Source of the DNA: a virus
Strand: one strand, 5' to 3'
Virus record (IMG/VR): IMGVR_UViG_3300045988_183505
Location: 63,428 to 127,427 of that record
Length of the DNA: 64,000 nucleotides
In this document: positions 4,079-56,122 of the stretch, piece by piece
Layout of the letters: the number at the start of each line of letters is the position of its first letter
How positions within the stretch are numbered: position 1 is the stretch's first letter
Notes under the pieces: generated by a model
Told to the model about the DNA's origin: nothing
Databases searched by the model: none
Seen by the model: the letters and a program-made list of their open reading frames with translations, nothing else
Translations under genes and position numbers: made by a program

Positions 4079-4100
4079 GAGAATTGTATTAAAGAAACGA

Positions 4101-4132
4101 AGCCCTGCTCCAGACGGAGCAAGGCTTTTTTG
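4101..4132 (+). terminator. Rho-independent terminator between convergent genes
   Basis: AGCCCTGCTCC-agac-GGAGCAAGGCT followed by TTTTTT. It lies between the stop of 3104-4078(+) and the stop of the integrase(-). Confidence 0.7.
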
Positions 4133-4133
4133 T

Positions 4134-5261: not shown

Positions 5262-5295
5262 ACATCTCCTGTTCCGTTGGCTTATATACTGGATT

Positions 5296-5332
5296 TGGTA
5301 GACCAAAATGGTATACCAACGGGTATGCCAAC
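5296..5332. repeat. three spaced GGTATACC-type palindromic boxes upstream of the integrase
   Basis: ggtagaccaa / ggtataccaac / ggtatgccaac at 5296, 5310 and 5322. The core GGTATACC is self-complementary. Confidence 0.6.
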
Positions 5333-5390
5333 CCTAATAAATCCCAATAAACGTTGTCATGTAATAACGGTCGTTGTTACCACACTACAA

Positions 5391-5419
5391 ATGTTATCAT
5401 CTACTATATGTCTTGTCAA
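5391..5419 (-). promoter_or_regulatory. candidate sigma-A promoter reading toward the integrase
   Basis: Minus strand reads TTGACA (5419-5414), 17 nt, TAACAT (5396-5391). Confidence 0.4.
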
Positions 5420-5575
5420 GAGAATTGCCAAAAAAGCAAGTAAAATCAAGGCTTAAAACAAAATAAAAGAGACAATCACCGAACGATTGCCTCTTTTGGA
5501 GAAGGTATTTTTGTTACTTATGGGGTGTAAGAAAAATGTCCTTTTTTCCCTTATTTTATCAGCTTTTTGAACTGT

Positions 5576-5598
5576 GGTATACCAACCAATATACCAAT
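5576..5598. repeat. second cluster of GGTATACC-type boxes
   Basis: ggtataccaac at 5576-5586 and aatataccaat at 5588-5598. Same motif as at 5296-5332. Confidence 0.55.
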
Positions 5599-5661
5599 AG
5601 TTTTTCATTACATCAGCTATACAAAGTGCAATCTCTCTGCTACTATTATACCACAGATGCA

Positions 5662-5692
5662 AAAAAAGCACCATAGCTGGGACTATGGTGCT
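5662..5692 (-). terminator. Rho-independent terminator (minus strand)
   Basis: Perfect 9-bp stem GCACCATAG / CTATGGTGC with a 6-nt loop. Followed on the minus strand by a U7 run (plus-strand aaaaaaa at 5662-5668). Confidence 0.8.
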
Positions 5693-5797
5693 TGTGAAAT
5701 AAAAGTGATACACGCACATTCTGCGTTGCTTGCAATGCCACTCCCAATATTTCATGGGAGATTTTCTTCTTTCGTGAATGGTCTGCACCATCTCACA
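5662..5797 (-). ncRNA. candidate ~135-nt small RNA bracketed by a consensus promoter and a terminator
   Basis: Lies between promoter 5804-5832 and terminator 5662-5692. Contains hairpins GATGGT/ACCATT and CTCCCA/TGGGAG. The only ORF here lacks an RBS and runs through the terminator stem. Confidence 0.3.
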
Positions 5798-5803
5798 GTT
5801 ACT

Positions 5804-5832
5804 ATTATATCAGTTTACATAATACAAGTCAA
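5804..5832 (-). promoter_or_regulatory. near-consensus sigma-A promoter
   Basis: Minus strand reads TTGACT (5832-5827), 17 nt, TATAAT (5809-5804). Confidence 0.55.
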
Positions 5833-5946
5833 TGAAACGCTGATAAAATCTACGTTTTAGCCAGATTTGCGAATTGCATTTTCAGCATAATTGCCGAAAT
5901 AAACAAAAATAAACACTTGTAAACCACATAATAATAAGGAACAAAC

Positions 5947-6264
5947 TCAGCTCATAAGCTCTAGCCAATTCGCAGCATCTTCAAATCCACCCTTGCGGAG
6001 CAGGTCTGCGATTGAATCTTCGCCTTCAACTGTACCGTTTGCATTCCTTACGAATACGCTAAGTCGTTCTACAACGCTTGTTAAAGAAGTAATCTCAGAT
6101 TGCAAAGACTGAAACGCCTCTGTCGTGTTGTCATTATCATTCATTGCTGAAAAAATCATGAATTGGCTCATATTCATGCCAAGTTTCTCGGCTTTATTCC
6201 GAATGGCTTCATACTGTGCTTCTGTCATTCGGATTTGTACCGGTTTGGTCTTGTTTTCTGCCAT
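5947..6264 (-). CDS. ribbon-helix-helix protein (MobC/CopG-like)
   Basis: MAENKTKPVQIRMTEAQYEAIRNKAEKLGMNMSQF is a typical RHH N-terminus. The ATG at 6264 is preceded by AGGAGG and abuts the upstream stop at 6267. The ORF-track start at 6423 would overlap that gene. Confidence 0.7.
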   Translation of the reverse strand: MAENKTKPVQIRMTEAQYEAIRNKAEKLGMNMSQFMIFSAMNDNDNTTEAFQSLQSEITSLTSVVERLSVFVRNANGTVEGEDSIADLLRKGGFEDAANWLELMS

Positions 6265-8922: not shown

Positions 8923-8966
8923 TGCTTCATACCCTCTCTTTCCTGTGCAGTTATCTTACATTATTT

Positions 8967-22709: not shown

Positions 22710-22738
22710 ATTATACACCGTTTATTTGAGTTTGTCAA
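22710..22738 (-). promoter_or_regulatory. class-1 consensus promoter (copy e)
   Basis: Minus strand reads TTGACA-AACTCAAATAAACGGTG-TATAAT. Confidence 0.7.
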
Positions 22739-22841: not shown

Positions 22842-23906
22842 TTATAAAAATTTATTTTGTAAAATGTATGCAGCTCTAATATTGGAAATTGCACGCTCTG
22901 TCTTATATCCGTATCTTTTGGCAAGTTCTTTCTCTGATACACCTTTTTCCAGTTCAGAAATTATCACTGCTTGGTGAATCGTTTTAGAGATGATACCTAG
23001 TGGCATACCGAGACGATTTGTAATAGCGGTCAGTGTTCCTTTAAGTGAATTTACTGTCGGAGAATTTCCGAGTTTATTAACAAATAGCAAGTTGGTATAT
23101 CTTGTTATACCAATACTACTGTCCGTACACTCCTGAGCTGATGGCATTTCCAGTATTTTACTTTCTCTCATCTGTTCGAGCCACTGGCAACACTCCTCTG
23201 TCAGCGGAAATGGCTTATCGTCCACTACAATGATTTTCTTTTCAAGGTTGACATCATAGCTGTGAATCGTTTTCGCCTTTTGGAATCGTAATCCGGTGAA
23301 TAGGCAGAATATAAGAACCAGTTCGTTTATTCCATACATAACACAGTTCTCTTGTATGCAATAATTTCTTAACTGTACGAGTTCTTTTTCTGCCATAATA
23401 TATCCACTGGCATAAGGAATAACATCTTCTTTTTGGGGACTTGCTATATCTGATATATCTACTACTTCAAGACCTGATTCAGCTGCAAGTGCAAAAGTTT
23501 TTCTTAGTACATCAATAATATCTATTACGTCCTTAAAGCTGTACTTATGTGACAGCTTGACATAAAATTCTGCAATTTCTTCCCGTGTGATTGACTGCAC
23601 ATCTCTATTCAACGGAGTACGAGAAACTGCATTATCTACTATATTGATTAGTCTGTTAAGCCTTGTTGCGTGTATCGTCCCAACAACACTCTTAAAATAA
23701 AACATGATATATTCTCTCAGATTTGTGTTGTTCGGTTTCTGATAAGATAAGCTGTGTTTTCGTTCCTGTTCGGCAGCTTCAATTTTCTTTTTCACTTCAT
23801 CTATTGATTTTCCGTATACACGTTTTCTCTTACCGCTGCTATCCACAACAAGGTCGTACACAAAATATGTTCCACTTCCTGTAGTTACTTTACGGATTTT
23901 TCTCAT
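22842..23906 (-). CDS. integrase-like protein with a divergent catalytic region
   Basis: N-terminal arm/SAM-like region and FTGLRFQKAKTI (box I Arg). Where HxLRH is expected it reads KTIHQAVII, so the second Arg appears absent. Confidence 0.6.
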   Translation of the reverse strand: MRKIRKVTTGSGTYFVYDLVVDSSGKRKRVYGKSIDEVKKKIEAAEQERKHSLSYQKPNNTNLREYIMFYFKSVVGTIHATRLNRLINIVDNAVSRTPLNRDVQSITREEIAEFYVKLSHKYSFKDVIDIIDVLRKTFALAAESGLEVVDISDIASPQKEDVIPYASGYIMAEKELVQLRNYCIQENCVMYGINELVLIFCLFTGLRFQKAKTIHSYDVNLEKKIIVVDDKPFPLTEECCQWLEQMRESKILEMPSAQECTDSSIGITRYTNLLFVNKLGNSPTVNSLKGTLTAITNRLGMPLGIISKTIHQAVIISELEKGVSEKELAKRYGYKTERAISNIRAAYILQNKFL

Positions 23907-24052: not shown

Positions 24053-24343
24053 TCAACGATTCATAATCCTGCGAATTTCATCAAGTTTTCTTTCACATTC
24101 TTTCATAGAAGCTCTTGCTTCCGGATAATCGGTTAGCCCCAGAAGATAATCACTGGACACATTCAGCTCTTGTGAAATCAGCACCAGAAGGCTTGCTGGA
24201 AATTCATGTTTTCCTGTCATGTACTTTCGTAAAGACACGCACGGCATTCCAAGCTTTTTTGAAAATTCCTGAATTGAAATATCGCTTTTTTCTATCCTGT
24301 TTCCGATTCTGTCAATCGTCACCTTCGGGTTGTAAACCATCAT
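24053..24343 (-). CDS. XRE-family helix-turn-helix regulator (candidate repressor)
   Basis: ISIQEFSKKLGMPCVSLRKYMTGKHEFPASLLVLISQELNVSSDYLLGLTD is a classic XRE HTH with the DYLLG tail. Confidence 0.8.
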   Translation of the reverse strand: MMVYNPKVTIDRIGNRIEKSDISIQEFSKKLGMPCVSLRKYMTGKHEFPASLLVLISQELNVSSDYLLGLTDYPEARASMKECERKLDEIRRIMNR

Positions 24344-28074: not shown

Positions 28075-28174
28075 TCTCCTTATCTTTTAGCCTGTCAGCG
28101 GACTTGTGACCGCTTGTCAGTCGCATTACTTGCAACCGACATTCGTGTCGGTCGCAATCACTCTGCGTTGCAGG

Positions 28175-28634: not shown

Positions 28635-28656
28635 ACCTTCCGGTTATTTATGTGTG

Positions 28657-28735
28657 CCTTACATTATTTATTATACAATATCTAGCGGTAGATATATTGT
28701 GGTTTATCTTTCTAGTCCGTAAACCTTTTGTAAAC
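28657..28735 (-). promoter_or_regulatory. class-2 promoter/operator cassette (copy A)
   Basis: Minus strand reads GTTTACAAAAGGTTTAC ... CACAATATATCTACCGCTAGATAT-TG-TATAAT ... AATGTAAGG. The palindrome is ATATCTA-ccgc-TAGATAT. Confidence 0.65.
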
Positions 28736-28747
28736 GATACACATAAG

Positions 28748-28775
28748 AAAAACTGCCTATCCAGAAGATAGACAG
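28748..28775 (-). terminator. Rho-independent terminator after the HEPN gene
   Basis: Minus-strand RNA reads CUGUCUAUC-uucug-GAUAGGCAG + UUUUU. One pair is G.U, so it forms only on the minus strand. Confidence 0.7.
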
Positions 28776-28812
28776 TAATAAGCCTCGGCATTATTTGTAC
28801 TAAAAAAACGGC

Positions 28813-33191: not shown

Positions 33192-33224
33192 ACGATTCAC
33201 GCCTTTCTCTCGGTGTCTTAACGA

Positions 33225-33303
33225 CCTTACATATACTATTTTATCATATCTTACAGTAGATATATTGTGCTTTACTTTTCTGATTGGTAAACCTTTTGTA
33301 AAC
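33225..33303 (-). promoter_or_regulatory. class-2 promoter/operator cassette (copy B)
   Basis: Minus strand reads TTTACAAAAGGTTTAC ... CACAATATATCTACTGTAAGATA-TGATAAAAT ... TATGTAAGG. Confidence 0.65.
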
Positions 33304-33322
33304 ATCGGAAATTGCAGTGTAA

Positions 33323-35250: not shown

Positions 35251-35300
35251 AATTCAAAACTCCTTATTTTTTGTTTGGTTTCTTGTACCTTACATATATT

Positions 35301-35329
35301 ATTATAGCATTCTGTATAGCCGTTGTCAA
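35301..35329 (-). promoter_or_regulatory. class-1 consensus promoter (copy f)
   Basis: Minus strand reads TTGACA-ACGGCTATACAGAATGC-TATAAT, then ATATGTAAGG. Confidence 0.75.
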
Positions 35330-35475: not shown

Positions 35476-38400
35476 TCACTTCGTCACAGGCAAGGTGTCG
35501 ATGTAACGAACCAAGAACTGCAACAGTGCGGTTGCATCATTGGAATCAATCTTATCATCAGAGAAAGTGTTTGCATTGATTGCAGCCTGTCCCTTCAAAG
35601 TGATAGTGCCGATTACTGCCTTATTGAGCATAACTGCATCTGTAAGATTTACCTTTCCGTCCAAGTTCAAATCGCCATACAGCGTATTCTTCGGAACATC
35701 AGTGCCTGTTGCCGTGGTTGTTGTGCCAGAGCCTGCTCCGCTGTTGTCTGTGGAAGATGCCGTGGTGGTATCTGAACCGTTTCCAGAACCGCTTGTACCT
35801 GTTGTACCAGTGCCAGAACCATTGCCTGTTCCAGCGGTGGTCACACTGCCACTTGTGGTAGTTGCACTGCCATTGCCAGAGGATTGGTCTGTACCTGTTC
35901 CTGTAGCTGTGCTGTCGCTGTCCACAGTGGACGAAGTAACGTCAGTCGTAGAAACAGTCGTCTCTGTTCCAGAGCCGCTTACAGAGGATTCTGAACCGCC
36001 TGTGGCTGTTGTCACGGTGGTGGTTGTCTGCTTCGGAGAAGCATTGATTACCAGCGTACCAGTTACCTTGTCATAGTTATCATCATCGGGAGTATATTCC
36101 CATGTCAGAGTATTGTCGCCTTCGGTCAGCTTCTTTACCTCATCGACTACCCATGAAACAGAACCGCTCGGTGTGTCCTTACCCAGAATCAGGTCAGGCA
36201 GGTCATCTCCAGCTTCGTAGTCCTTGTCCGGAACACTTACTTCAACATTCGGGACTGCCTTTTTCACACGGAATGTCACATTCAGCTCCAGCTGAGAGCC
36301 ATTTCCGGCGGTGATTGTGATTCTTGCCTTTGTCTGTCCCACTTCTGTCGGCGTACCGGAGAGAACACCATCTTCCAATGTGATTCCCTTCGGCAGACCA
36401 GAGCCGGTTTTTGTAGTGCTTGTTGCGACCGGAACTTCCGGAGCAGGCTGATTTTCGGACAGTTCAATAGATTTGATACCGCCCACTTTACCAGCATTGC
36501 CGATATAGCTTCTCAAATCAATATCTTCCATCGGCACATTGTAGGTCAGGTCTACTGCTGCCACACCAGACTTTCCGTTTGCCCATTCCATCATCGGAGT
36601 ATCGCCGTTGTCCATATCGTCAATGTCAACATCTCTGTAGTCGCTGGTAAAAGAACCGATTGTAACATCTGTGACATCGTAGTCGTCATTACCGCCGTCC
36701 AGCTCAACCAGTGCGGTAACAGTATAATCACCTACCGGCAGCAGGACATCATAGTTTCCGTCCTTTACAGCATAGCAAGTGCCGCCGTCCGCATAAGCAT
36801 CAGCCGGAGAAGCATATTTGCTGTCGTAAAAGTATAAGATACCTCGGTTGTCGCCTTGGTCTTCTTTGAACGGCTTATATGCGTTCAGGTCTGTAAAGCT
36901 TTTCAGACGTACCCGAACAAGGTCTGTACCATCTGCCAGCTCATAAGTGCAGTCCGGAAGGAACAGCAGCTTGTCACTTCCACCTTCGGTTGTGACATCT
37001 ACGACCGGAGCATCTTTGCAATCACGCTTTTCTTCTGAAAGAACCTCGTAGTTGCCATCGCCGTCCAGATAATCCGTAGACACTTCACGAATATCCTGCA
37101 AGCCAGAATAAGACAGCAGCTTGTAGTCAGCATCGTGTGTAACAAACGCCATCTTACCGCCGACAAATTCAACAAAATAGTCGTTGCTTTCGCCATCGAA
37201 CATTTTCTTCGCTGTATCAGCTCCATATGTTCCGGTAGCATCAACTGTCAGGTCTCCAGAATCGACATTGCTGATAATCGGATATTTGTAGTCTTCCTTT
37301 GCAGTGTACAGTTCCTGCAAGCCGGTGATATAATCGCCGTTTCCCTTTGCCTTAGAAGAATCCATTTCAGAAGCAGGTGTACGGCTTGCCAGTTTATCTG
37401 TGATTGCATAGAAATTGTCAACCACATCAATCTTACCGGTATCATCACTTACCAGCTTGTCAATATCTGTAGACCGAATGATGTTGCCGTACTCTGTCTG
37501 ATTATCCGTAACAGGATTTGTCAGTCCCAGCTCACGATAATAATTATCGTAGCCAAATAAAGATACGATGTCATAAATCATTCCGGATTCATGCTGCGTA
37601 CTCGGATTCAGCTTGCTGTCAATGATACTGGACATAACAGCACCAGCAATCAAATATCCAGAGGAATCAAAAATCTGCGGCGAATGGTTCGCCGAGTAAA
37701 CCTCGCCTTCGGTTTCACCATCCATATATTCCGACTTCATCGTAAAATCCGCATTGTAATAAGTCCCCTTCGGGAGAGCGATTGCATAACCACCCTTTAC
37801 CGTATACGATGTTCCGGTAGTCGGCAAAATCTGTGTAAGTGTCATATCCTTCATCTTCGGAGAAGCATATGCCAGATTGAAGTCGTTTTCTGTCACACTT
37901 GTAACATTGCCGTTGCTGTCCGCAACATACTTGTAAAAGGTTCTGTCCCCGATTGCATGGGGCATACCCGACAGGTCAAACATATCCAGCAAAAGGCTTT
38001 TGCCGTTGATAACCGTTACAGGCTTGCCCTTATACATCTTGATGCGACAATTGGTACTCGTAGTGAAATACCCAGTCAGCTCTCTGCCTTCTTCTCCGGT
38101 AATCGCATAGAACTCATTGGTTGCAGTGCTGTCCGTGATTCCGGAAACATCGACCGGAATAATGCAGGAAGTATCAACTGTTGTCACCTGCGGTGAGTAA
38201 TTGCCGTTCTGCTTTACGATTCTTATGCTAATCAAGGGGCTGCCAACTGCTGTGCCGCCATGTGGTTCAGCATAAACCACACTGTAGCCTGCGTTGTACA
38301 TCTCGCCGAGAACCGAATTGCAGATAAGACGATTTGTAACTACCGCCTTGTACTTCTTGAAGTCTCCAGTCGTGACGAGAGAAAAGCCGATGCTCTTGGT

Positions 38401-38664
38401 GTTACCGGCTACATTCGTATCACTGTAGGAATACTTCTCCAGATTGTTGGCAAACGCCGTGTTGGGCAGTACCAGATTGATTTCCGTATCACTGAACGTA
38501 TACACGGTTTCGCTCAGCTTCTGTGTCTGCTTCTGCGAAATGTTTGTGCCTGTCACTGCACTGTTTACTGCACTCGCTGAAAGACTAGCAGTTCCAGTTG
38601 CCATACAAGCCACGGCGGTCAGTAAAGCCACATATGACTTTACCTTTCTGTGATTTGTCTTCAT
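35476..38664 (-). CDS. large secreted protein with an Ig-like repeat, a Thr/Ser/Gly linker and a C-terminal type-I dockerin
   Basis: Signal peptide after the ATG at 38664. He_PIG-like GITLEDGVLSGTPTEVG. Long TS/G-rich linker. C-terminus GDLNLDGKVNLTDAVMLNKAV ... DDKIDSNDATALLQFLV gives two dockerin Ca-binding repeats. Confidence 0.85.
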   Translation of the reverse strand: MKTNHRKVKSYVALLTAVACMATGTASLSASAVNSAVTGTNISQKQTQKLSETVYTFSDTEINLVLPNTAFANNLEKYSYSDTNVAGNTKSIGFSLVTTGDFKKYKAVVTNRLICNSVLGEMYNAGYSVVYAEPHGGTAVGSPLISIRIVKQNGNYSPQVTTVDTSCIIPVDVSGITDSTATNEFYAITGEEGRELTGYFTTSTNCRIKMYKGKPVTVINGKSLLLDMFDLSGMPHAIGDRTFYKYVADSNGNVTSVTENDFNLAYASPKMKDMTLTQILPTTGTSYTVKGGYAIALPKGTYYNADFTMKSEYMDGETEGEVYSANHSPQIFDSSGYLIAGAVMSSIIDSKLNPSTQHESGMIYDIVSLFGYDNYYRELGLTNPVTDNQTEYGNIIRSTDIDKLVSDDTGKIDVVDNFYAITDKLASRTPASEMDSSKAKGNGDYITGLQELYTAKEDYKYPIISNVDSGDLTVDATGTYGADTAKKMFDGESNDYFVEFVGGKMAFVTHDADYKLLSYSGLQDIREVSTDYLDGDGNYEVLSEEKRDCKDAPVVDVTTEGGSDKLLFLPDCTYELADGTDLVRVRLKSFTDLNAYKPFKEDQGDNRGILYFYDSKYASPADAYADGGTCYAVKDGNYDVLLPVGDYTVTALVELDGGNDDYDVTDVTIGSFTSDYRDVDIDDMDNGDTPMMEWANGKSGVAAVDLTYNVPMEDIDLRSYIGNAGKVGGIKSIELSENQPAPEVPVATSTTKTGSGLPKGITLEDGVLSGTPTEVGQTKARITITAGNGSQLELNVTFRVKKAVPNVEVSVPDKDYEAGDDLPDLILGKDTPSGSVSWVVDEVKKLTEGDNTLTWEYTPDDDNYDKVTGTLVINASPKQTTTTVTTATGGSESSVSGSGTETTVSTTDVTSSTVDSDSTATGTGTDQSSGNGSATTTSGSVTTAGTGNGSGTGTTGTSGSGNGSDTTTASSTDNSGAGSGTTTTATGTDVPKNTLYGDLNLDGKVNLTDAVMLNKAVIGTITLKGQAAINANTFSDDKIDSNDATALLQFLVRYIDTLPVTK

Positions 38665-38721
38665 TGGACATAATCTCCTTTGCAAAAAAGATTTTAGGCT
38701 TTATTCAGCCATTATTTGATT

Positions 38722-39192: not shown

Positions 39193-41307
39193 TTATTCTG
39201 TCACCGGCAAAGAAGTGATTGTGTGAACCAAGAACCGCAGCAATGTTGTTGCATCGTTGCCATCAAGATTACCGTCTGCATAGCACTCCGCATTATCCTT
39301 TGCCTGCTCATTCAACACAACAGAGCCTGCGATTGACTTGTTCAGCAGAACAGCATCAGAGATGTCCACTCTGCCGTCCAGCGTAACATCGCCCAGCAGA
39401 ATTGTACCACTGCTGCCCTGTGTGGTTACTGTAGTGGTGGTTGTGGAAGAACCCTGTCCTGTGGTGCTGGTGGTCGTTGTGCCACCGTCCAGAGCAACGA
39501 ACGGAATGTTGTTCGCAGTAGCATATGCTTCTACAGTAGAACCTGTATAACCATACAGTGTCAGGTTATCGCAACTACCAAATGCTTTGTTCTCAATCAT
39601 AATATCTGTTCTGGTAATCTTAGCTTCTCGCAATCCGGTATTCACAAATGCGTATTTTCCAATGAATGTAACATTAGAAAAATCAAAAGATTCCAGCTGT
39701 CGGCAGCTGGAAAACTGACCGCCGTTCAATCTGAGTTCTCCGTCTCCATAGGTCTTTACAGTTGTGAGATTGTACATACTTGTAAATTCTATATTTGCAG
39801 AACAGTTTACGCCCTTTTTCCCAAGCTCGAACGGTCGTTCTGTGTTGTTCATGTACAGCTCCAATGTTGAAGAAATTTTATTTCCATCTTCATCAGAAGT
39901 TGCTGTCATAATATCATCAAAAGCACCTTCATACCATTGGCTATCGTCATATACACCCAGCTTCAAGGATTCCAGTTCGGCACAATTCTTGAAAGCTTCG
40001 TTGTCAAAAAGGTGTGCAGAAGTTAAGTCCAAGCTTTTCAATTTATAGCAATTCACGAAAGCTTCTCTGCCGAAGCCAAGAGCGTTGCCAACATTGACCT
40101 TCGTCAGGTTTTCACAATAAGAGAAGTTTCCGTCACTATAATACAGCTCACCATTTCCGACTACTTCAAAAGTGTTCAGCAATCTATCTTCACGTTCAAA
40201 GTCATCAGGGAGAACATAAGCGTCCTCATTGTTGGTGTAAATCGTCATCGAATACGGCTTGACGTTTCCTTCACTTTTTTGTCTTCGTCCAAACGCATAT
40301 TCTCCTATTTCCAGCTTATCGTTCAGGGCAATTTGAATATCGTTTGCACTTGTGCAGCCAAGAAAAGCAGCATCGCCAATGTACCGCAGATTTTTGTTCT
40401 TCAACTGAATCTCTGACAGCTGTGTACAGCCTTCAAACGCATCATCAGCAACAACAACAACATGAGAGAAGTCAAAATTTCTCAGCATAGTGTTGTTCCG
40501 AAACGCCATGTTTCCGATGCCGACTTCTCCGTCACCTTCAAAGCGTACTTCACGGATTCTGTTGCTGTCATAAAATCCACTTGAAATTGTCATCATGTTG
40601 CTTTTATTCATGTTGAGTTGGAAGGTCAAAACGAATGCCGTTCCAGCAAACGAATCCCCTTCGCCAAAAATATGCTGACCTATGCCGTTAAGCTGTGCTG
40701 CTTCACAGTTTTTATCAGTAATACTGATTGTGACATCTTCCAGAGAAGAACAGCCACTGAACGCTTCGCTGCCAACACACCCCAGTTTCGTATTTGTCAG
40801 ATTTACAGTCGTCAGCTTTTCACAGCCCATAAATGCGTAATCTAACATATCTACGATTTTCTCAAAAGCCACAGTTTTCAAGCGAGAACAGCCGTGAAAT
40901 GCGTCCTTGTAGAGTACCATTTCTTCATTTTCAAAGTCTACGGACTTCAAATTAGTGCAGTTCGCAAATGCGGCTTCGCCAATAAATTTCACATCTTCTG
41001 CCAGCGTCAGACTGACGTTTTCCAGTTCACGGAATGCTTCTGTAGTGCCAGTCACAGTATAATTACCGTCACCATTATCTTCAAACGTAAAGTAATCTGT
41101 CTGACTGGTATCACACTGTACCTCTATAGGAACATTTGTAGTGGCTTCTACAAGCACAGGTGCTGTATCAGATACAGTAGTGTCACCGTCTGTTACAACA
41201 ACATCACTTGCAGTAAGGTCTACCGCCCACGCAGTCATCGGCAACGCCTGTACACACATGACACCAGCCAACAGTAAACCTGCTGCCGTTCGTTTCAACT
41301 TCTTCAT
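39193..41307 (-). CDS. BspA-type leucine-rich-repeat surface protein with a C-terminal type-I dockerin
   Basis: Signal peptide. Many repeats of the form IGxxAFxxCxxLxxV. Thr-rich linker. C-terminus GDVTLDGRVDISDAVLLNKSI ... ADGNLDGNDATTLLRFLV. The ATG at 41307 lies 9 nt after AAAGGA. Confidence 0.85.
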   Translation of the reverse strand: MKKLKRTAAGLLLAGVMCVQALPMTAWAVDLTASDVVVTDGDTTVSDTAPVLVEATTNVPIEVQCDTSQTDYFTFEDNGDGNYTVTGTTEAFRELENVSLTLAEDVKFIGEAAFANCTNLKSVDFENEEMVLYKDAFHGCSRLKTVAFEKIVDMLDYAFMGCEKLTTVNLTNTKLGCVGSEAFSGCSSLEDVTISITDKNCEAAQLNGIGQHIFGEGDSFAGTAFVLTFQLNMNKSNMMTISSGFYDSNRIREVRFEGDGEVGIGNMAFRNNTMLRNFDFSHVVVVADDAFEGCTQLSEIQLKNKNLRYIGDAAFLGCTSANDIQIALNDKLEIGEYAFGRRQKSEGNVKPYSMTIYTNNEDAYVLPDDFEREDRLLNTFEVVGNGELYYSDGNFSYCENLTKVNVGNALGFGREAFVNCYKLKSLDLTSAHLFDNEAFKNCAELESLKLGVYDDSQWYEGAFDDIMTATSDEDGNKISSTLELYMNNTERPFELGKKGVNCSANIEFTSMYNLTTVKTYGDGELRLNGGQFSSCRQLESFDFSNVTFIGKYAFVNTGLREAKITRTDIMIENKAFGSCDNLTLYGYTGSTVEAYATANNIPFVALDGGTTTTSTTGQGSSTTTTTVTTQGSSGTILLGDVTLDGRVDISDAVLLNKSIAGSVVLNEQAKDNAECYADGNLDGNDATTLLRFLVHTITSLPVTE

Positions 41308-41347
41308 GTCATCTTGTCCTTTCAAAGTATCTATCTAATTTGTTTTT

Positions 41348-42206: not shown

Positions 42207-42274
42207 GCTTAACCTCTTATTTGTGTGCTTGTGGGATTTGCGAATGATTGGAGCAGTCAGACAATGTAACGTCC

Positions 42275-42330
42275 TTTGGAATTTTCATGATATAAGATAT
42301 ATAGCAAATCAATTGAACAATATGATAACT
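42275..42330 (-). promoter_or_regulatory. degenerate class-2 cassette (copy G)
   Basis: Minus strand reads TTTGCTATATATCTTATATCATGAAAAT. It resembles copies C and F, but the palindrome is shortened by ~6 nt. Confidence 0.35.
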
Positions 42331-42408
42331 CTTTGCGAACAGCAAAAACCCCTTGTAAGTTATCATTTTGCCGTTGATTATTCGCTCGTCCGCAGGAAAT
42401 GCCACGTT

Positions 42409-42867: not shown

Positions 42868-42902
42868 GACAGGTCAGCTCCTTTGGTTTCTTATTGCCTT
42901 TA

Positions 42903-42981
42903 CCTTACATATACTATTTTATCATATCCGCTGTAAGATATATTGTGCTTTGCATTTCGGAAATGAAAACAATCTGTAAAT
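42903..42981 (-). promoter_or_regulatory. class-2 promoter/operator cassette (copy C)
   Basis: Minus strand reads TTTACAG ... CACAATATATCTTACAGCGGATA-TGATAAAAT ... TATGTAAGG. Confidence 0.6.
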
Positions 42982-43424
42982 CACAATTCTTTGCCTGTTT
43001 CATTGCTGATAATCACAATCACCTTTGGATTATCACTATACCATTTTTCTACGGAAAGAGAGGTGATTTGCTTGTCGTCCGGATAAGCGATACCATTCAG
43101 ACCATCACAAATGATTTTTGCAATATTGTCTGCATCGCACTTCTTCAACGGACGGATTTTCCCTTGCAGCATTGCTTCACGTTTCACCCTGCTTGTTGAT
43201 TTGGGGATTCCAAAATGGGCAATGATTTCTACACGGATTGCATCACTCTCAGAGAACCGGAAGCCACGGCTGACCGCCTTGTAGCACCAACCAACTTGTG
43301 TTTCATAGTCCTTGGTTTCTGTCGGCGTGTAAGTGCTACCTTTACCGAATCTCGGTCTGCCTTTCCCCTTTGGTTCACCATCAATCTTAAATGAGATTTT
43401 TGTAATGAAAATACCTTCTTTCAT
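42981..43424 (-). CDS. rusA: RusA-family Holliday-junction resolvase
   Basis: PKGKGRPRF..TYTP..T..YE and CDADNIAKIICDGLNGIAYPDDKQI, the RusA catalytic Asp cluster. Confidence 0.85.
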   Translation of the reverse strand: MKEGIFITKISFKIDGEPKGKGRPRFGKGSTYTPTETKDYETQVGWCYKAVSRGFRFSESDAIRVEIIAHFGIPKSTSRVKREAMLQGKIRPLKKCDADNIAKIICDGLNGIAYPDDKQITSLSVEKWYSDNPKVIVIISNETGKEL

Positions 43425-46946: not shown

Positions 46947-47039
46947 AACTACTTCTCCTCAGTCTTGGATTTTTAGATTTTTGGGGGATTGAAATACGAA
47001 TTAAGATTAAAGAATTTATCGGGATTCTGTTCTCCCTTT

Positions 47040-47113
47040 GATATTATCATTATAGCATATCTTACGGTAGATATATTGTCATTTACTTTGCCAACTTGTA
47101 AACCTTTTGTAAA
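47040..47113 (-). promoter_or_regulatory. class-2 promoter/operator cassette (copy D)
   Basis: Minus strand reads TTTACAAAAGGTTTACA ... ATGACAATATATCTACCGTAAGATA-TGCTATAAT. Confidence 0.65.
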
Positions 47114-47126
47114 GGTCTGAAAACGT

Positions 47127-47157
47127 AAAAATCAGCCTATACCGCAGTACAGACTGA
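47127..47157 (-). terminator. Rho-independent terminator ending the 50.3-47.2 kb operon
   Basis: Same stem family as 39127-39160 (tcagcctata...tacagactga), followed by U5 on the minus strand. Confidence 0.6.
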
Positions 47158-47178
47158 CTTGTCATCGCTTTTTTCCTT

Positions 47179-49556: not shown

Positions 49557-49683
49557 TGGTGTCCGATGCAGGATTTGCACCTGCGTAGCACATCAAAAGC
49601 AATTGAAAGAACTGCACATGATTCAATCTACGAGAGAAAGAGGTTGCTTTGGACAATGCTGTTTTCACCTAAACTACTCGGAC
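49557..49683 (-). ncRNA. tRNA-shaped RNA 1 (127 nt) with a 60-nt insertion in the anticodon loop position
   Basis: Reading the minus strand: acceptor GTCCGAG/ATCGGAC, U8-A9, D arm GTTT-AGGTGA-AAAC. Anticodon stem GCATT/GATGT closes 60 nt. Variable region GCTAC, T arm GCAGG-TGCAAAT-CCTGC, discriminator A, then CCA. Confidence 0.55.
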
Positions 49684-49751
49684 ATTGTGAGGGAAAGCTA
49701 AATCAATGAAGAAAAAGCCTTCCCTCAGAAGATATATTGGAGTGAAAATGG

Positions 49752-49876
49752 TGGTGTCTGAGACAGGGATTGCACCTGCATTCTGTATCGTCTATCACTA
49801 CACAACTTCTCTCTTACGTTGCGTTTTGCGAACAGCTTTTGCTCCAGTTACAGTGTTTTACTTAAACTACTCAGAC
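49752..49876 (-). ncRNA. tRNA-shaped RNA 2 (125 nt) with a 61-nt insertion in the anticodon loop position
   Basis: Perfect acceptor GTCTGAG/CTCAGAC, U8-A9, D arm GTTT-AAGTA-AAAC. Stem CTGTA/TACAG closes 61 nt. T arm GCAGG-TGCAATC-CCTGT, then A-CCA(CCA). Confidence 0.55.
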
Positions 49877-50054
49877 GCAAGACGGAGAAATGGAAAAACT
49901 CCGTCCTGTAAGATATATAAAAGGAGATGTTAATGGTATAACAGGCTCAAATGGGATAAAACCCTGCTATACCGAAAGGAAGCCGAATCACAGGAGCGAC
50001 CTGCTTTTCGGCGTTTGACAGGCTATCACCGCCACGCCATGAGTTTCACATATA
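49877..50054 (-). ncRNA. structured leader RNA upstream of the tRNA-like pair
   Basis: Three minus-strand hairpins: GCCGAA..CAGG-tcgct-CCTG..TTCGGC; GGTATAGCAGG/CCTGTTATACC (11 bp, one G.U, so minus-strand specific); GACGGAG/CTCCGTC just before the tRNA-like RNA. Confidence 0.35.
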
Positions 50055-51842: not shown

Positions 51843-52175
51843 TCAGGAAATGATGAATGACTGCTGCCGTACCTTTTCAGGCAACGTGTATGCGAAAGCT
51901 TTTGCATAGCCGTCAAACAACTGTATAATTGCAATAGTTTCTCCGCATTGAAAGCGAGGAACTTCCTGCTCTCTCCGTCTCCGTGCTGTCAGCATGATTG
52001 CTCCTGCTTCGAGGGAAAGCTTGCCGTTTTCGCTCATCAGCTCAAATGGAAAGCCATCAATTTTGCACTTCATGCCTACATGAAAATCATACTTTTCGTA
52101 GTCCTTGACAGGCGTAACCATGTCAATCATCAGCTGTGGCATCTGAATAGCTTCCAAAATGTTGATTTCTTTCAT
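51843..52175 (-). CDS. hypothetical protein
   Basis: 110-aa ORF in the array. Confidence 0.55.
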   Translation of the reverse strand: MKEINILEAIQMPQLMIDMVTPVKDYEKYDFHVGMKCKIDGFPFELMSENGKLSLEAGAIMLTARRRREQEVPRFQCGETIAIIQLFDGYAKAFAYTLPEKVRQQSFIIS

Positions 52176-52188
52176 GTTTCCTCGCTCC

Positions 52189-52398
52189 TTATACTCTTCT
52201 GTTCCACGCTTTATAAGCGTCCTCTTTTGAAAAATACTGTCTTCTGGGCTGGCTCAGCCCGCACTGTGTGCAATAGATTCCATACCAATGCTTATCAAGT
52301 TCTGCATCGCCATAACTGCCCAGAACATTATATTTTGCTTGTTTCAGCCTTGCTTTACCACCACAGCAAGGACAAGGCTGAATGACGCTTTTGCTCAT
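52189..52398 (-). CDS. lar: Lar-family restriction-alleviation protein
   Basis: 69 aa. PCPCCGGKARL ... YCTQCG ... SKEDAYKAWNRRV is the typical Lar zinc-ribbon pattern with the AWNRR tail. Confidence 0.75.
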   Translation of the reverse strand: MSKSVIQPCPCCGGKARLKQAKYNVLGSYGDAELDKHWYGIYCTQCGLSQPRRQYFSKEDAYKAWNRRV

Positions 52399-52411
52399 GT
52401 CGATATTCCTT

Positions 52412-52759
52412 TCATGTTACATTCCAGAACTTCGATTCGTCATCGTTCTCTTCGCTGTATTTTTCATCTATATCATCAATGTTATAGATGTCAACCTTGC
52501 CCCAAATCATTGTTGTACAGTCATTCTCGTCAAAGATGGCTTCGATGTTGATTTTCTTGAACTTTCCCTCTTCACCTTCTTCACTGATGCAATAGTGACT
52601 TCCGTCTTTGTACTGCACCCACAGCAAATCGTCTGTACGCTGCCCGATTTCGATTGCATATCTAATGCCATCAATGATGTCAGCAACGTCATGCAGGGCT
52701 TCTTTTCTGCTTTCCCATACCTCAAAAATCTGTCCACCCTTTGTTGTGAATGTTCTCAT
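52412..52759 (-). CDS. hypothetical protein
   Basis: 115 aa, acidic, first gene after cassette E. Confidence 0.55.
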   Translation of the reverse strand: MRTFTTKGGQIFEVWESRKEALHDVADIIDGIRYAIEIGQRTDDLLWVQYKDGSHYCISEEGEEGKFKKINIEAIFDENDCTTMIWGKVDIYNIDDIDEKYSEENDDESKFWNVT

Positions 52760-52782
52760 TTTTCCTCGCTCCTCTGTCTGTA

Positions 52783-52858
52783 CCTTACATTATCTATTAT
52801 ACAGTATCTAGCAGTAGATATATTGCAGTTTATTTTTCTGGTTTGTAAACCTTTTGTG
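52783..52858 (-). promoter_or_regulatory. class-2 promoter/operator cassette (copy E)
   Basis: Minus strand reads CACAAAAGGTTTACA ... TGCAATATATCTACTGCTAGATAC-TG-TATAAT ... AATGTAAGG. Confidence 0.65.
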
Positions 52859-52868
52859 AAAGCGAAAA

Positions 52869-53480
52869 TCATACCGCCGGTTCTGCTTCCAGAACGGGAG
52901 CATTTTCCATAATCCACCTTGCGAAGCCATCAGCTCCACCTACCGCATCATATTCCGCTTTTGTCAATTTGACATTCACAGTAATCATTACCGGTACTTC
53001 ATCACGCACAACAGGCTGTTTTTCAGATTGGTTATCTGCCGCCTTCAAACCTTTTTCCATTCCTTGTTTTGCAAGAGCATCTGCTTTTTCATTAAGTCTG
53101 TCACTGGAGTGAGCCTTGACTTTAACAAACTGAATCGGCAGATATTGTCTTGCCTTCGCCACTCTGTCCCGATAATCCTGTGTTGCCACCTTTTTTGCTT
53201 TCCATTCGCCATCAGCCCACTTCTGTAATCCTTCATAGTCATGGTATACAGTTACAGAATCTACATCACGACTGCTCTGATTGATTTTGAACAGCAGCCG
53301 GAGAGCTTCCAGTACGCCATAGATTTCTCCGGCAACATTACGGATTCCGTCAGCATCTTCGCCGTAAAAAGAAAGTTCCTGAACCGGATTAAATCCGAAG
53401 GGAGTTTCTTGCAGAATAACTGCACCAGCTCCCCAGATGCCGTTCTTATACGAACCATCAGAATAAATTGCGTATTTCAT
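52869..53480 (-). CDS. ribonuclease HI (catalytic residues intact) with a C-terminal extension
   Basis: IYSDGS (D), AGEIYGVLEAL (E), VYHDYEG (D), VKAHSS...NEKADALAK (H, D). This is the full DEDD-type set. Confidence 0.8.
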   Translation of the reverse strand: MKYAIYSDGSYKNGIWGAGAVILQETPFGFNPVQELSFYGEDADGIRNVAGEIYGVLEALRLLFKINQSSRDVDSVTVYHDYEGLQKWADGEWKAKKVATQDYRDRVAKARQYLPIQFVKVKAHSSDRLNEKADALAKQGMEKGLKAADNQSEKQPVVRDEVPVMITVNVKLTKAEYDAVGGADGFARWIMENAPVLEAEPAV

Positions 53481-53492
53481 ATCGCTACTCCT

Positions 53493-53744
53493 TTACCACA
53501 TCATTTCCAGCACTCTGATTGATTTACTCCGAAGTTGTTCCTCGGTGTATCGGTTATGGTTATAACCCTTCGCCAGAATGTCCTGAATCAAAGATTCCTT
53601 GTATGCTCTTGTCCGTTCTCTTTCCAGCTGAATCTTCTCAGCTTCTTCCTTGTGTCTTTTCTCCATGTGTGCGAAATAGATTTCTTTTTCCTGCGGTGTC
53701 ATTCCGGCAGTCACTTCGTTCAGTCCCATAAGCCTTCTCCTCAC
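53493..53744 (-). CDS. hypothetical protein
   Basis: 83-aa ORF in the array. Confidence 0.5.
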   Translation of the reverse strand: MRRRLMGLNEVTAGMTPQEKEIYFAHMEKRHKEEAEKIQLERERTRAYKESLIQDILAKGYNHNRYTEEQLRSKSIRVLEMMW

Positions 53745-53749
53745 TTCAC

Positions 53750-53977
53750 TTAGTCAATGACTACACCGAGAATTTCAGCAGCATGATAGATGACTTCCTC
53801 AAAAGTATCTGCATCAGCATCTTCCCAGTCAGTTTCGAGCCTTGCACGCTTGCACAGCTCTTTGCAGGCTTCCATTTCCCAATAGTTAAGGCGATTGATT
53901 TCTTCAACCAACGCTTCCAGTGACCACGCACTGTATTCCGTATGCCATGCTGTGTTTTTTACCATGATACTTACCAT
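53750..53977 (-). CDS. hypothetical protein
   Basis: 75 aa, first gene after cassette F. Confidence 0.5.
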   Translation of the reverse strand: MVSIMVKNTAWHTEYSAWSLEALVEEINRLNYWEMEACKELCKRARLETDWEDADADTFEEVIYHAAEILGVVID

Positions 53978-53998
53978 TCCTTTCGGTCGTATGTGTTT

Positions 53999-54076
53999 CT
54001 TACACTATATATTATACTATATCTACCGGTAGATATATAGCAGATTTACTGAAATATCTTGAAATAAACTGTAAAC
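53999..54076 (-). promoter_or_regulatory. class-2 promoter/operator cassette (copy F, perfect palindrome)
   Basis: Perfect 20-bp palindrome TATATCTACC|GGTAGATATA at 54018-54037, adjacent to TATAAT (54016-54011). TTTACA box at 54070-54075. Confidence 0.7.
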
Positions 54077-54127
54077 AAAATAAAGGCTCTGCTCGAAAGC
54101 AAAACCTTTATTCGTGTATTGATTCAA

Positions 54128-55777
54128 TTATCGTGTTATGTCATCTTTATGGGGAGTTTTTTCTCCAGCTGCTTTCATAAGAGATTGAAAGTGCTTTTTA
54201 TCGGATACCGGTTCTTGCAAAAGAGCTTGCATCAGTTGTTCCGGCTGTTTCAAAAATGTTTCTACATTCATATACAGCACCTTATCTTCCGGAGTGATTG
54301 CCTGAAACGGATTAAACGCACTTTTACCCTGATACAGCACAATCTTATTTTGGATTTCTGCACCGGTTTCCTTTTCAAACGCCTCACAAAGCTGCTTGTT
54401 TGTTAAATGTCGTACCTGCTTCTCGGTCTGCTTATCAGACAGTTTTACCTCTACAGCACAAGCTGTCCGGCGTTCAAGGTCGGCAAAAAACACATCAAAT
54501 TCACCAACGTATGTTTTCGGTTCATACTTTGATGCAACTACACTGCCGCCTATTTCCTTTGCGGACTGTATCGCTTGATACAACACAATGTCTTCCAGAA
54601 CGTGACCACTAATATCCTGCTCCAGCTTATCCAGAATTTCCTTCTGTTCCACCATAGAATATTCACCGTTGCGGAATACATCTGTGTTAAGTAATGCCTC
54701 TGCCTCATCTTTCGCTTGACTGTATCGCATTCCGGACTGTGTGAAAAGATAGCTCGGTTCACCGCTTTTTTCCGGCAATTCGTATAACACGTCCATTTCT
54801 TTTAGAAAATGAATGATAGCCTGTACACACTCTGGGTCTACCGGTATTGGATTTTCTTTAATGTGTAAAGCAATCCGGATTCTATCCGTCAAGTCTTCTC
54901 TTGCTTTGATAGAGGCTTCATCATTACCAGAAGGGTAAAGCAGCTCTGGGTCTGAACTGCCTGACTTCGTGAGAAGGTCAGCCAACGAGCCAATATCATG
55001 TGACTTAAAGTCACTGTTAATGATACTTGCTAAGAACTGTCGGTTGTTGTATTCCAACACTTTGTTGATATAGGACGGTAAATCGCCTCTGCGAACAGCA
55101 CCGTCCAGAATGCCATTATTTCGTCCTTGATTCCATCTTTCAAGGCTGTGCGTGATATTAAACACAATCGCTGAATTGGAATACTCTCCAGTTTGTTCTT
55201 TATTATAGAATACGCCCTCTGGAGACAGTGTGCCACCATATCGGATATAATCCATAATTCCTGTTCCTAAAAGTTCATGCTGCTCTCGGAAAGGAATATA
55301 CGTTGTGTGAATGAAATGCACCCTGTCGTACAACTCGTCTTTTCTTGCAAGGGCGAATCCTAATGAATCTGTTCCGGCAAGTATAATCTTTTTACCCTCA
55401 GCCGCATAATTATCTGACAGCACGCTGGCTGTACTGATAAAATTTTGTGCCTTTGTTGCTTCGTCTACAAAAATATACTTACTGTCCGGATAAGCTTCTA
55501 TCATTTTTCGCATCTGCATGACAGAGCTTCCACTTTCACAGTGTAAGAGCAGGCACTTGTCATAATCTCCGATACGCTCTATTTCTTGTAGCATCATCGT
55601 GGTCTTGCCTGTTCTCCGTAAACCATATAAGCAGCAAACCTTCCGGTCATTTGGTGCATTCAAATAATCACGCAGCTGACTGGCGATAAATCGCTCTTTG
55701 TCAATTCCGGTCAAAGTGTTTTCTATATGCGTTTTCAGCGATTCCCCATGGTAAATCGTCATTTCATAATTGCTCAC
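54128..55777 (-). CDS. AAA_14/DUF4143-type ATPase with a C-terminal nuclease-like block
   Basis: Walker A GLRRTGKTT, Walker B YIFVDEATK. C-terminal D...EVK block (GEFDVFFAD...CAVEVKLS). GTG start after AAGGAG. Confidence 0.75.
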   Translation of the reverse strand: MSNYEMTIYHGESLKTHIENTLTGIDKERFIASQLRDYLNAPNDRKVCCLYGLRRTGKTTMMLQEIERIGDYDKCLLLHCESGSSVMQMRKMIEAYPDSKYIFVDEATKAQNFISTASVLSDNYAAEGKKIILAGTDSLGFALARKDELYDRVHFIHTTYIPFREQHELLGTGIMDYIRYGGTLSPEGVFYNKEQTGEYSNSAIVFNITHSLERWNQGRNNGILDGAVRRGDLPSYINKVLEYNNRQFLASIINSDFKSHDIGSLADLLTKSGSSDPELLYPSGNDEASIKAREDLTDRIRIALHIKENPIPVDPECVQAIIHFLKEMDVLYELPEKSGEPSYLFTQSGMRYSQAKDEAEALLNTDVFRNGEYSMVEQKEILDKLEQDISGHVLEDIVLYQAIQSAKEIGGSVVASKYEPKTYVGEFDVFFADLERRTACAVEVKLSDKQTEKQVRHLTNKQLCEAFEKETGAEIQNKIVLYQGKSAFNPFQAITPEDKVLYMNVETFLKQPEQLMQALLQEPVSDKKHFQSLMKAAGEKTPHKDDITR

Positions 55778-55811
55778 AATACTTTCTCCTTTCCACGTTT
55801 TAATTGCTGAT

Positions 55812-55820
55812 AGTATATCA
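55812..55820 (-). promoter_or_regulatory. extended -10 element upstream of the ATPase gene
   Basis: Minus strand reads TGATATACT (TGnTATACT), 35 nt upstream of the GTG start. Confidence 0.35.
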
Positions 55821-55876
55821 TATTTATCGAAATATAGGAACAGGCTCTGCCAAACAGCAAAGCCTGCATGAAGCTT

Positions 55877-56122
55877 TTATTTTTGCACTTCCAGTCTTTT
55901 CAGTAAAATAAGAATGAGTGCATTTGTTTCTTCCTCATCGAGATAATAAATCGTTCCTTGACAGTTTGGAGCATCTTGCACCTTTTCTTCCAAAGAATCC
56001 AGATGTGTACGCAAGAATTGTTCCTGTGTTCTTTCTTTATTATCCCACGCCTGCTGAACACTCTCCTTTAACAGCGAAATATGTTCAGCCATAACGCAAA
56101 GACGAAATTTTCGCCGGAGCAT
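55877..56122 (-). CDS. hypothetical protein
   Basis: The ATG at 56122 follows AAGGGGGAG. The ORF track starts at 56188. Confidence 0.5.
   Translation of the reverse strand: MLRRKFRLCVMAEHISLLKESVQQAWDNKERTQEQFLRTHLDSLEEKVQDAPNCQGTIYYLDEEETNALILILLKRLEVQK

Follow-up and report, generated by a model that had tools for sequence, protein, structure and literature searches.

The window analysed here, a stretch of 64,000 nucleotides of the IMG/VR virus record IMGVR_UViG_3300045988_183505, is phage DNA of a human-gut metagenome lineage, and encodes a RecJ-like exonuclease, a tyrosine integrase, ERF, a PIF1/Dda-type helicase, RusA, three YopX proteins, a Dcm methylase, Lar, RNase H and dockerin-bearing proteins. 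IMG/VR contains two close relatives (131 and 145 kb). A megablast search of positions 52000-56000 against 50,697 phage records gave no match, which indicates that this phage is not SPbeta-like at the nucleotide level, and tblastn of the 1069-aa protein against the phage collection gave essentially no match. To our knowledge, hardly any work has been done on the large temperate phages found in gut Clostridia. Some features of the surrounding genome are worth reporting in their own right. The block formed by the RecJ-like gene, a 324-aa ORF and the integrase (window 1379-5306; loci L380-L383) adjoins the host ftsH gene in other gut assemblies, so that the window probably spans the joined phage ends (attP), at ~5.3-5.45 kb. 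ParA and ParB genes lie upstream of the ERF operon, ~7-9 kb past the window end (L384/L385, 1139-2840), and their presence suggests possible plasmid-like maintenance. Finally, two large proteins (35476-38685 and 39193-41325, minus strand) end in dockerin type I domains, one of them also carrying BspA-type leucine-rich repeats, and such domains point to a cellulosome- or amylosome-making host, for example a Ruminococcus-like bacterium.

The feature on which this work focuses is a cassette of ~80 bp, six copies of which can be aligned without gaps in the window, all on the minus strand and each heading an operon (Table 1). These six positions, and the minus-strand operons behind them, had been listed in a sequence-only reading that preceded our analysis, and they were borne out by the gap-free alignment and by a profile built from the six copies, which returned six window matches, on the minus strand only, with E values between 1e-21 and 1e-27 (28641-28745, 33207-33312, 42891-42985, 47019-47124, 52764-52877 and 53979-54092). 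The core pattern CAATATATCTACCGNNAGATAT, when up to three mismatches were allowed, marked five copies through six matches (copy F being matched on both strands), the expectation from shuffles being 0.00, and the pattern AAAGGTTTAC-N54-ATGTAAGG was matched three times in the window, with 0 matches expected. Two further cassettes were located just past the window end, in assemblies that encode an identical ERF protein and whose 20-kb flanks are closely similar, not identical, to the end of the window; both carry perfect ATATCTACCGGTAGATAT palindromes, and one of them is found between parB and a helicase gene. With six copies in the window and two past its end, the cassette is present at least eight times per genome.

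Table 1. Cassettes and associated features of the window (positions are those of the window)
Feature	Coordinates	Strand	Direct repeats	Inverted repeat or arm	-10 element	Element after the -10	Genes served and remarks
Cassette A	28657-28735	-	28729-28735, 28718-28724	ATATCTACCGCTAGATAT, 28678-28695	TATAAT, 28670-28675	ATGTAAGG, 28657-28664	Operon from 28634 down to XRE gene ending 24053 (-)
Cassette B	33225-33303	-	33297-33303, 33286-33292	33246-33263	TGa-TAAAAT, hexamer 33238-33243	ATGTAAGG, 33225-33232	Genes from ~33191 down to 28813
Cassette C	42903-42981	-	Variants ATTTACA and GTTTTCA	ATATCTTACAGCGGATAT, 42924-42941	TGa-TAAAAT, hexamer 42916-42921	ATGTAAGG, 42903-42910	YopX gene 42867-42409 (-); cassette overlaps RusA stop codon
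Cassette D	47036-47114	-	47108-47114, 47097-47103	47057-47074	TGc-TATAAT, hexamer 47049-47054	None; long leader	Operon 46946-42981 (-): Dcm methylase, two YopX genes, RusA
Cassette E	52783-52861	-	52855-52861, 52844-52850	ATATCTACTGCTAGATAC, 52804-52821	52796-52801	ATGTAAGG, 52783-52790	Operon 52759-50343, including Lar
Cassette F	53998-54076	-	One clear repeat, 54070-54076	Perfect 20-bp palindrome, 54018-54037	TATAAT, 54011-54016	GTGTAAGA, 53998-54005	Operon 53977-52869, including RNase H
Degenerate copy	42273-42367	-		Left arm GCTATATATCTT remains, right arm gone			Profile E 0.03
Terminator hairpin directly 5' of cassette A	28752-28776	-
Terminator hairpin directly 5' of cassette D	47129-47160	-
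Isolated left arm	49910-49918	-		TTATATATCTTACAG			Hairpin follows; before first tRNA-like RNA
Isolated left arm	49729-49737	-		CAATATATCTT			Hairpin follows; before second tRNA-like RNA
Canonical relative of the cassettes	63831-63898	-			TTGACA-N17-TGcTATAAT	AGTATATGTAAGGTA	Profile E 1e-4
Candidate regulator 1	24053-24343	-					XRE/HTH_3 protein, 96 aa
Candidate regulator 2	22842-23906	-					Tyrosine-recombinase-fold protein, 354 aa, degenerate catalytic residues

When viral and genome collections were searched with the loose patterns CAATATATCT-N6-RGATAT or TTTACAAAAGGTTTAC, mostly chance matches were obtained. Re-scoring the viral-scan matches with the profile yielded five loci on two IMG/VR contigs, which became eight loci after a second viral scan, and the stricter AAAGGTTTAC-N54-ATGTAAGG pattern was the one that worked on metagenomes. 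The window and its relatives provided a total of 20 non-redundant copies, all of them without gaps. Because all known copies are confined to one narrow clade of gut phages, their conservation may be due in part to recent common descent or gene conversion. The motif strings of the cassette brought up nothing relevant in the searchable literature; the cassette sequence is new, and one operator repeated over a temperate phage genome is a known design.

In the description that follows, the -10 hexamer was set at -12 to -7, and the transcript start was predicted from the -10 spacing. Read along the minus strand, the cassette begins with a 7-bp sequence that is directly repeated once, at an 11-bp period (GTTTACA-AAAG-GTTTACA). 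This pair of repeats occupies about -72 to -55, and 3' of it lies an A-rich stretch (GAAAAnTAAA). An inverted repeat of 18-20 bp, (A/G)CAATATATCT-N6-AGATA(T/C), is then found at about -32 to -15, and its centre, at about -23.5, is 11 bp 5' of the -10 in every copy. The -10, which is TATAAT or TAAAAT and is preceded by TG in some of the copies, also has a fixed position, and five bases after it ATGTAAGG extends over the predicted transcript start. Across the 20 non-redundant copies the information content peaks at TTTACAAAAGGTTTAC, CAATATATCT, AGATAT, TAnAAT and ATGTAAGG, and the TTTAC-N19-CAATATATCT spacing is invariant, with the 6-bp centre of the inverted repeat varying freely (ACCGCT, ACTGTA, TACAGT, ACCGGT and others). 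The left arm, CAATATATCT, is both longer and better conserved than the right one, and three copies, namely F and the two in L385, have perfect ATATCTACCGGTAGATAT palindromes. Direct-repeat and palindrome variants occur mixed among the cassettes, and in C and F the direct repeats are degenerate with the rest of both cassettes intact.

Several details of this anatomy had been put forward in the sequence-only reading, and not all of them survived. The palindrome had been drawn with a single central N, a pattern that none of the copies matches, the true form being ATATCT-N6-AGATAT. Correct, on the other hand, were the perfect 20-bp palindrome of copy F (TATATCTACC followed by GGTAGATATA), the TGn before the -10 of B, C and D, and the absence of a -35 at 17 nt, where AATATA is found. 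We could in fact find no -35 hexamer 16-19 nt 5' of the -10 of any cassette, and a promoter scan did not pair any cassette -10 with a -35: what the scan listed inside the cassettes was only the upstream TTTACA, TTCACA or ATGACA paired with a different downstream hexamer. The element ATGTAAGG, described as common to the family, is indeed present in A, B, C and E, but F has GTGTAAGA in its place and D has none. Likewise, terminators directly before the copies, which had been reported for several of them, were seen for A and D, the hairpins of which have similar 3' halves and T-runs (…GGATAGGCAGTTTTT and …GTATAGGCTGATTTTT), whereas B, C and E come directly after coding sequence. The degenerate copy was recovered as well, although as a weak match in which the left arm is all that can be recognised, and it might act as a weak promoter for 42206-41568.

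Two observations on the transcribed regions can be added. ATGTAAGG corresponds to a start codon and then an immediate stop codon, an arrangement kept in the variants GTGTAAGA of copy F and ATGTGAG (L350, L375); these start-stop sites, all on the minus strand, are found after the -10 of cassettes A, B, C, E and F (Table 1) and at 35288-35295, 8954-8961 and 63849-63856. Possible explanations for such an arrangement are a leaderless start-stop, a 5' stabiliser and a mere preferred start context. Within the cassette A operon, between two small genes, we also identified a type-P5 twister ribozyme (28098-28167, minus strand), which scored 54.6 bits, the gathering score being 37.6.

Left arms were also found in isolation. 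ATATATCTW sites are 14 in number, compared to 1.0 expected, and two isolated arms precede the two tRNA-like RNAs, the one at 49910-49918 being identical over 13 bases to the cassettes with a TACAG centre. The half-sites that had been proposed before these RNAs are hence real, even though the RNAs themselves are only partly tRNA-like. They are encoded by two tandem genes of ~125 nt (49760-49880 and 49560-49683, minus strand), in which the Rfam tRNA model (29.4 bits, with a threshold of 29) accounts for the acceptor, D and T arms, but an insert of ~64 nt takes the place of the anticodon arm; neither gene was called by ARAGORN.

A clue to how these promoters might be read came from the canonical relative of the cassettes, which drives the ERF operon: its -10 and start module are those of the cassettes, but it has a true -35 and lacks the palindrome. 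Because this module is shared with a promoter carrying a perfect TTGACA-N17, the cassette module can be tied to the host primary sigma factor. Compared with sigma-A promoters, the cassettes have a -10 near TATAAT in all copies, but no -35 near TTGACA. TGn is present in 12 of the 20 non-redundant copies, and its distribution is uneven, as it precedes the -10 in nine out of nine copies with the weaker TAAAAT versus three out of 11 with TATAAT (Fisher p = 0.0014, a value that ignores the relatedness of the copies). This distribution suggests selection for recognition by the polymerase without a -35. The genes below the cassettes are of the early type, and include the ERF neighbourhood, RusA, YopX, Dcm, Lar and RNase H.

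The cassettes are not the only repeated promoters in the window. A second family, TGTATTGACAAC(A/G)GCTATACAAAnTGnTATAATA, is found on the minus strand with -35 elements starting at 35329, 16029, 13656, 11801 and 8995, with looser members at 63890 and 22738. This family has a conserved spacer as well as perfect or near-perfect -35, -10 and TG elements, and an inverted repeat in the spacer, TGTAT-N11-ATACA, lies over the -35; similar TATTGACAACG... promoters are present in the distant relatives L377 and L378. At least two classes of stereotyped promoters are thus present in this phage, in keeping with staged or differential control. We also noted a promoter with a perfect 12-of-12 match to TTGACA-N17-TATAAT (22710-22738, minus strand), immediately 3' of the recombinase-like gene described below, which drives a TraX-like gene, an HTH_17 gene, and further genes downstream. 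The sequence-only reading had missed this second canonical family, as well as the direct-repeat module of the cassettes and the degenerate recombinase-like protein.

The interpretation that we favour, with moderate confidence and on the basis of sequence comparison, is that the cassettes are early promoters of the extended -10 type, used by the host sigma-A and shut by a dimeric phage repressor bound to the palindrome. According to this model, the host primary sigma factor would read the near-consensus -10, with the TG extension where the -10 is weaker and with the A-rich stretch upstream, and the inverted repeat ATATCT-N6-AGATAT, which replaces the usual -35, would be the operator for a dimeric, phage-encoded repressor. 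Once bound, such a repressor would block RNA polymerase at all cassettes simultaneously, and the early operons devoted to recombination, nucleases, methylase and anti-restriction would be switched together. The direct repeats could represent a second, strictly spaced protein site, either an auxiliary activator site or a second contact of the same regulator, and this strict module may be a separate site.

Fixed arms and a free centre are the pattern expected of a dimer that contacts two arms, and a site at -32 to -15, inside the polymerase footprint, argues for repression, as does the SPbeta precedent discussed below. Conservation in the relative L338, with ~70-79% DNA identity to the window, also fits a protein-binding site: two cassettes there keep an intact core, and the orthologue of cassette A is 83% identical, in spite of a downstream gene with 38% protein identity. 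The fact that the cassette was kept where the gene it drives has drifted to this extent was counted as selection. The earlier suggestion of a shared regulator site built into the promoters is partly supported, as it fits the position of the putative site in the spacer, its conserved arms and variable centre, its strict spacing, the three perfect palindromes and its retention in L338. In terms of what is typical of an operator for a dimeric HTH protein, conserved arms and a tolerant centre are both present, but an adjacent repressor gene is not, and no repressor gene divergent from any of the cassettes was seen. A simple symmetric-dimer model, moreover, leaves unexplained the greater conservation of the left arm and its solitary occurrence.

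Other explanations need to be weighed against repression. The cassettes might be activator-dependent middle promoters that would become active only once a phage activator, bound to the direct repeats (in a class I position) or to the palindrome, recruits RNA polymerase, in which case canonical promoters such as those at 63890 and 35329 would fire first. The lack of a -35 in every copy is in line with this possibility, and so are the direct repeats, which recur at an 11-bp period, keep a constant distance from the -10 and rank with the most conserved blocks of the cassette, and the separate family of perfect TTGACA-N17-TGnTATAAT promoters in the genome, which fits two temporal classes. The palindrome, however, occupies a region where bound proteins normally block the polymerase, the apparent TG/-10 compensation suggests activity that is independent of a -35, cassettes C and F are intact apart from their degenerate direct repeats, and no activator-type gene was recognised among the window proteins scanned; overall, we regard activation as rather unlikely. 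An alternative sigma factor would instead make sense of the invariant TTTAC-N19-CAATATATCT spacing, and of a left arm that beats the right one in conservation and stands alone before the tRNA-like genes. The cassette would then contain a tandem promoter in which the second TTTACA is the -35 and CAATAT, 18 nt downstream, is the -10, with the right arm being secondary, and it would be read by a phage or clostridial group-5 (TcdR-like) or other sigma factor. TcdR-family sigma factors do recognise TTTACA as a -35, but with GTTATA as the -10 (PMC4031146), and the cassette, which shares the former, has CAATAT at the position of the latter and so departs from a TcdR-type promoter. Among the window proteins scanned, none had a sigma-factor domain; many small ORFs at 5.4-22 kb were covered only indirectly, through L338, where the homologues of most of them are also without a Pfam sigma-factor domain. 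In addition, TTTACA is missing at the expected distance from the solitary left arms, and the AGATAT arm, the perfect palindromes and the first direct repeat would be left without an explanation, which altogether makes this possibility improbable in our opinion.

It could also be argued that no dedicated regulator binds the palindrome at all, and that a strong promoter module was simply copied around the genome and homogenised by gene conversion. Distant relatives do have their own, different repeated terminator-promoter cassettes, and the mixing of direct-repeat and palindrome variants among the cassettes would be compatible with such a process. The variation seen here, however, is not uniform identity but is patterned, with fixed arms, a free centre and fixed spacing, the core survives beside genes that diverged to 38%, and exchanging the -35 for a palindrome would make a purely constitutive promoter weaker, so that homogenisation as the sole explanation appears quite improbable. 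Lastly, the palindrome might work as an RNA or DNA hairpin, acting as a processing site, an attenuator or a hairpin promoter, because B, C and E have no upstream terminator and read-through transcripts would therefore carry it. The predicted stems, however, range from -3.5 to -6.1 kcal/mol with z-scores mostly above -2, the changes in the centre are not compensatory, most copies forming 6-7 A/T-rich pairs with a 4-6-nt loop, and no U-run follows the stem. A role as an RNA hairpin was ruled out on folding energy, and we find the hairpin explanation as a whole hardly credible.

If repression by a palindrome-binding protein is indeed the mechanism, two proteins encoded in the window are candidates for the regulator. 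The XRE protein, which the sequence-only reading had proposed for this role, is encoded by the last gene of the cassette A operon, 4.3 kb downstream of A, and a strong terminator (24047-24022) follows its gene. Between the window and L338 there is no difference in its helix-turn-helix, PCVSLRKY(M/L)TGKHEFPA, although the whole proteins are only 65% identical, and the recognition helix is identical wherever the operator occurs; XRE homologues, in turn, were found only in the cassette-bearing clade, to which all three clusters retrieved belong. This protein is still a good candidate, although its local upstream region has no operator. Its location at the end of a cassette-driven operon may reflect a Cro-like feedback role rather than that of a lysogeny repressor.

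The second candidate, the tyrosine-recombinase-fold protein encoded by ORF 22842-23906, has a TTTGCA-18-TATAAT promoter of its own (23990-23961) and no cassette, as would be expected of a gene expressed in the lysogen. When a domain search was performed with the single sequence, the match to integrases was below threshold, but a profile of 35 homologues matched XerA (8e-19), Tn1549 Int and XerD. The alignment-based structural model, with a pLDDT of 92.5 compared to 46 for the single-sequence model, has tyrosine recombinases as its best structural matches, MrpR (8a0a_A) being 20th with an E value of 2.7e-4, and shows an extra N-terminal sheet-plus-helix domain. In this family the catalytic sites are altered: the Arg-I column is K15/P5/R4, HxxR has become K..H/Q, and the tyrosine could not be aligned. 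The family is also small, with 81 representatives in 1.84 billion proteins. A TraX-like gene adjoins the homologue in all four loci that extend past its 3' end (out of five, as L379 ends at the gene), and an HTH_17 gene then follows in three of those four relatives. More distant members of the family belong to phages without the cassette, which have their own repeated terminator-promoter cassettes. The possibility that this protein is a homologue of MrpR was rejected, as BLASTP gave an E value of 2.5 and hhalign a probability of 0.4%, and the fold is all that the two share; judging from the predicted model, it is nonetheless the closest structural analogue of SPbeta's MrpR here.

No operator was found in the promoter of either candidate's own gene. 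From the sequence data we would place the XRE protein slightly ahead of the degenerate recombinase as the regulator acting on the palindrome. It is doubtful, yet conceivable, that the recombinase-like protein is instead the master regulator, and that it binds the cassettes as an integrase binds attP. The core-binding and catalytic-fold domains would in that case clamp the ATATCT-N6-AGATAT arms, and the N-terminal sheet-plus-helix domain would hold the GTTTACA repeats ~40 bp upstream, across an A-rich bend. If this were true, the protein would be the second independent example of a recombinase turned phage repressor after MrpR, and the first with a two-part, attP-like operator, and the conversion of an integrase to a repressor would be a recurring evolutionary route and not a one-off event. 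More generally, one putative 18-bp operator in front of at least eight early operons offers a direct experimental handle on the lysis-lysogeny switch, with one probe and two candidate proteins. The cassette is also a compact and probably switchable promoter, and could be a possible genetic tool in Ruminococcaceae-like hosts if the host suggested by the dockerin domains is right.

Comparison with known systems helps place these elements. Many copies of a repressor site scattered genome-wide, with a silencing function, are also found in Cluster A mycobacteriophages as the stoperators of L5 gp71-type repressors (PMC9283540, PMC6550527), but stoperators, at 13 bp, are asymmetric and monomer-bound, and lie within transcription units where they block elongation, whereas the site described here is symmetric, fixed inside promoters, and part of an 80-bp cassette. 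Lambdoid and 434 operators, bound by proteins of the XRE/Cro family, resemble it in their short conserved arms, in the ~6-bp centre that is not contacted, in the overlap with the core promoter, and in the small HTH_3 protein encoded in the early region. Here, however, the operator is spread over at least eight promoters and not clustered at one switch, no divergent repressor/cro pair lies beside it, and the promoters are without a -35. The 6+6+6 layout and the two direct repeats 35-45 bp away also mimic the core- and arm-type sites of tyrosine-recombinase att sites, and a nearby gene codes for a protein that combines the recombinase fold with an N-terminal sheet-plus-helix domain. Unlike true att sites, those described here are in promoters and not at element ends, no recombination products were seen, and the family of the candidate protein is without the conserved catalytic Arg/His/Arg/Tyr; nor was any similarity to the cassette seen in the attP junction region (5290-5960).

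The closest parallel in layout is offered by SPbeta, a temperate phage of ~130 kb, in which SPBRE, verified by ChAP-seq and EMSA, is the operator of the master repressor MrpR (PMC10516654). In both phages a dyad element of ~15-20 bp is repeated in the -35/-10 spacer of many early promoters, as seen in the TAGACA-AATACAAATAATATGTA-TATAAT layout of the nine SPbeta promoters that we extracted, and here too a tyrosine-recombinase-fold protein with degenerate catalytic residues is encoded. The two elements show no similarity in sequence (CAAATACAAAwAATATGTAT in SPBRE, CAATATATCT-N6-AGATAT here), the SPbeta promoters retain a -35-like hexamer and have no upstream direct-repeat module, and the recombinase-like protein of our phage has an extra N-terminal domain and no detectable homology to MrpR. 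The functional analogy to the SPbeta operators drawn in the sequence-only reading therefore does not extend to the sequence, which is unrelated, or to an MrpR homologue, but it does hold for the position of the element, which in both phages is the spacer of the promoter.
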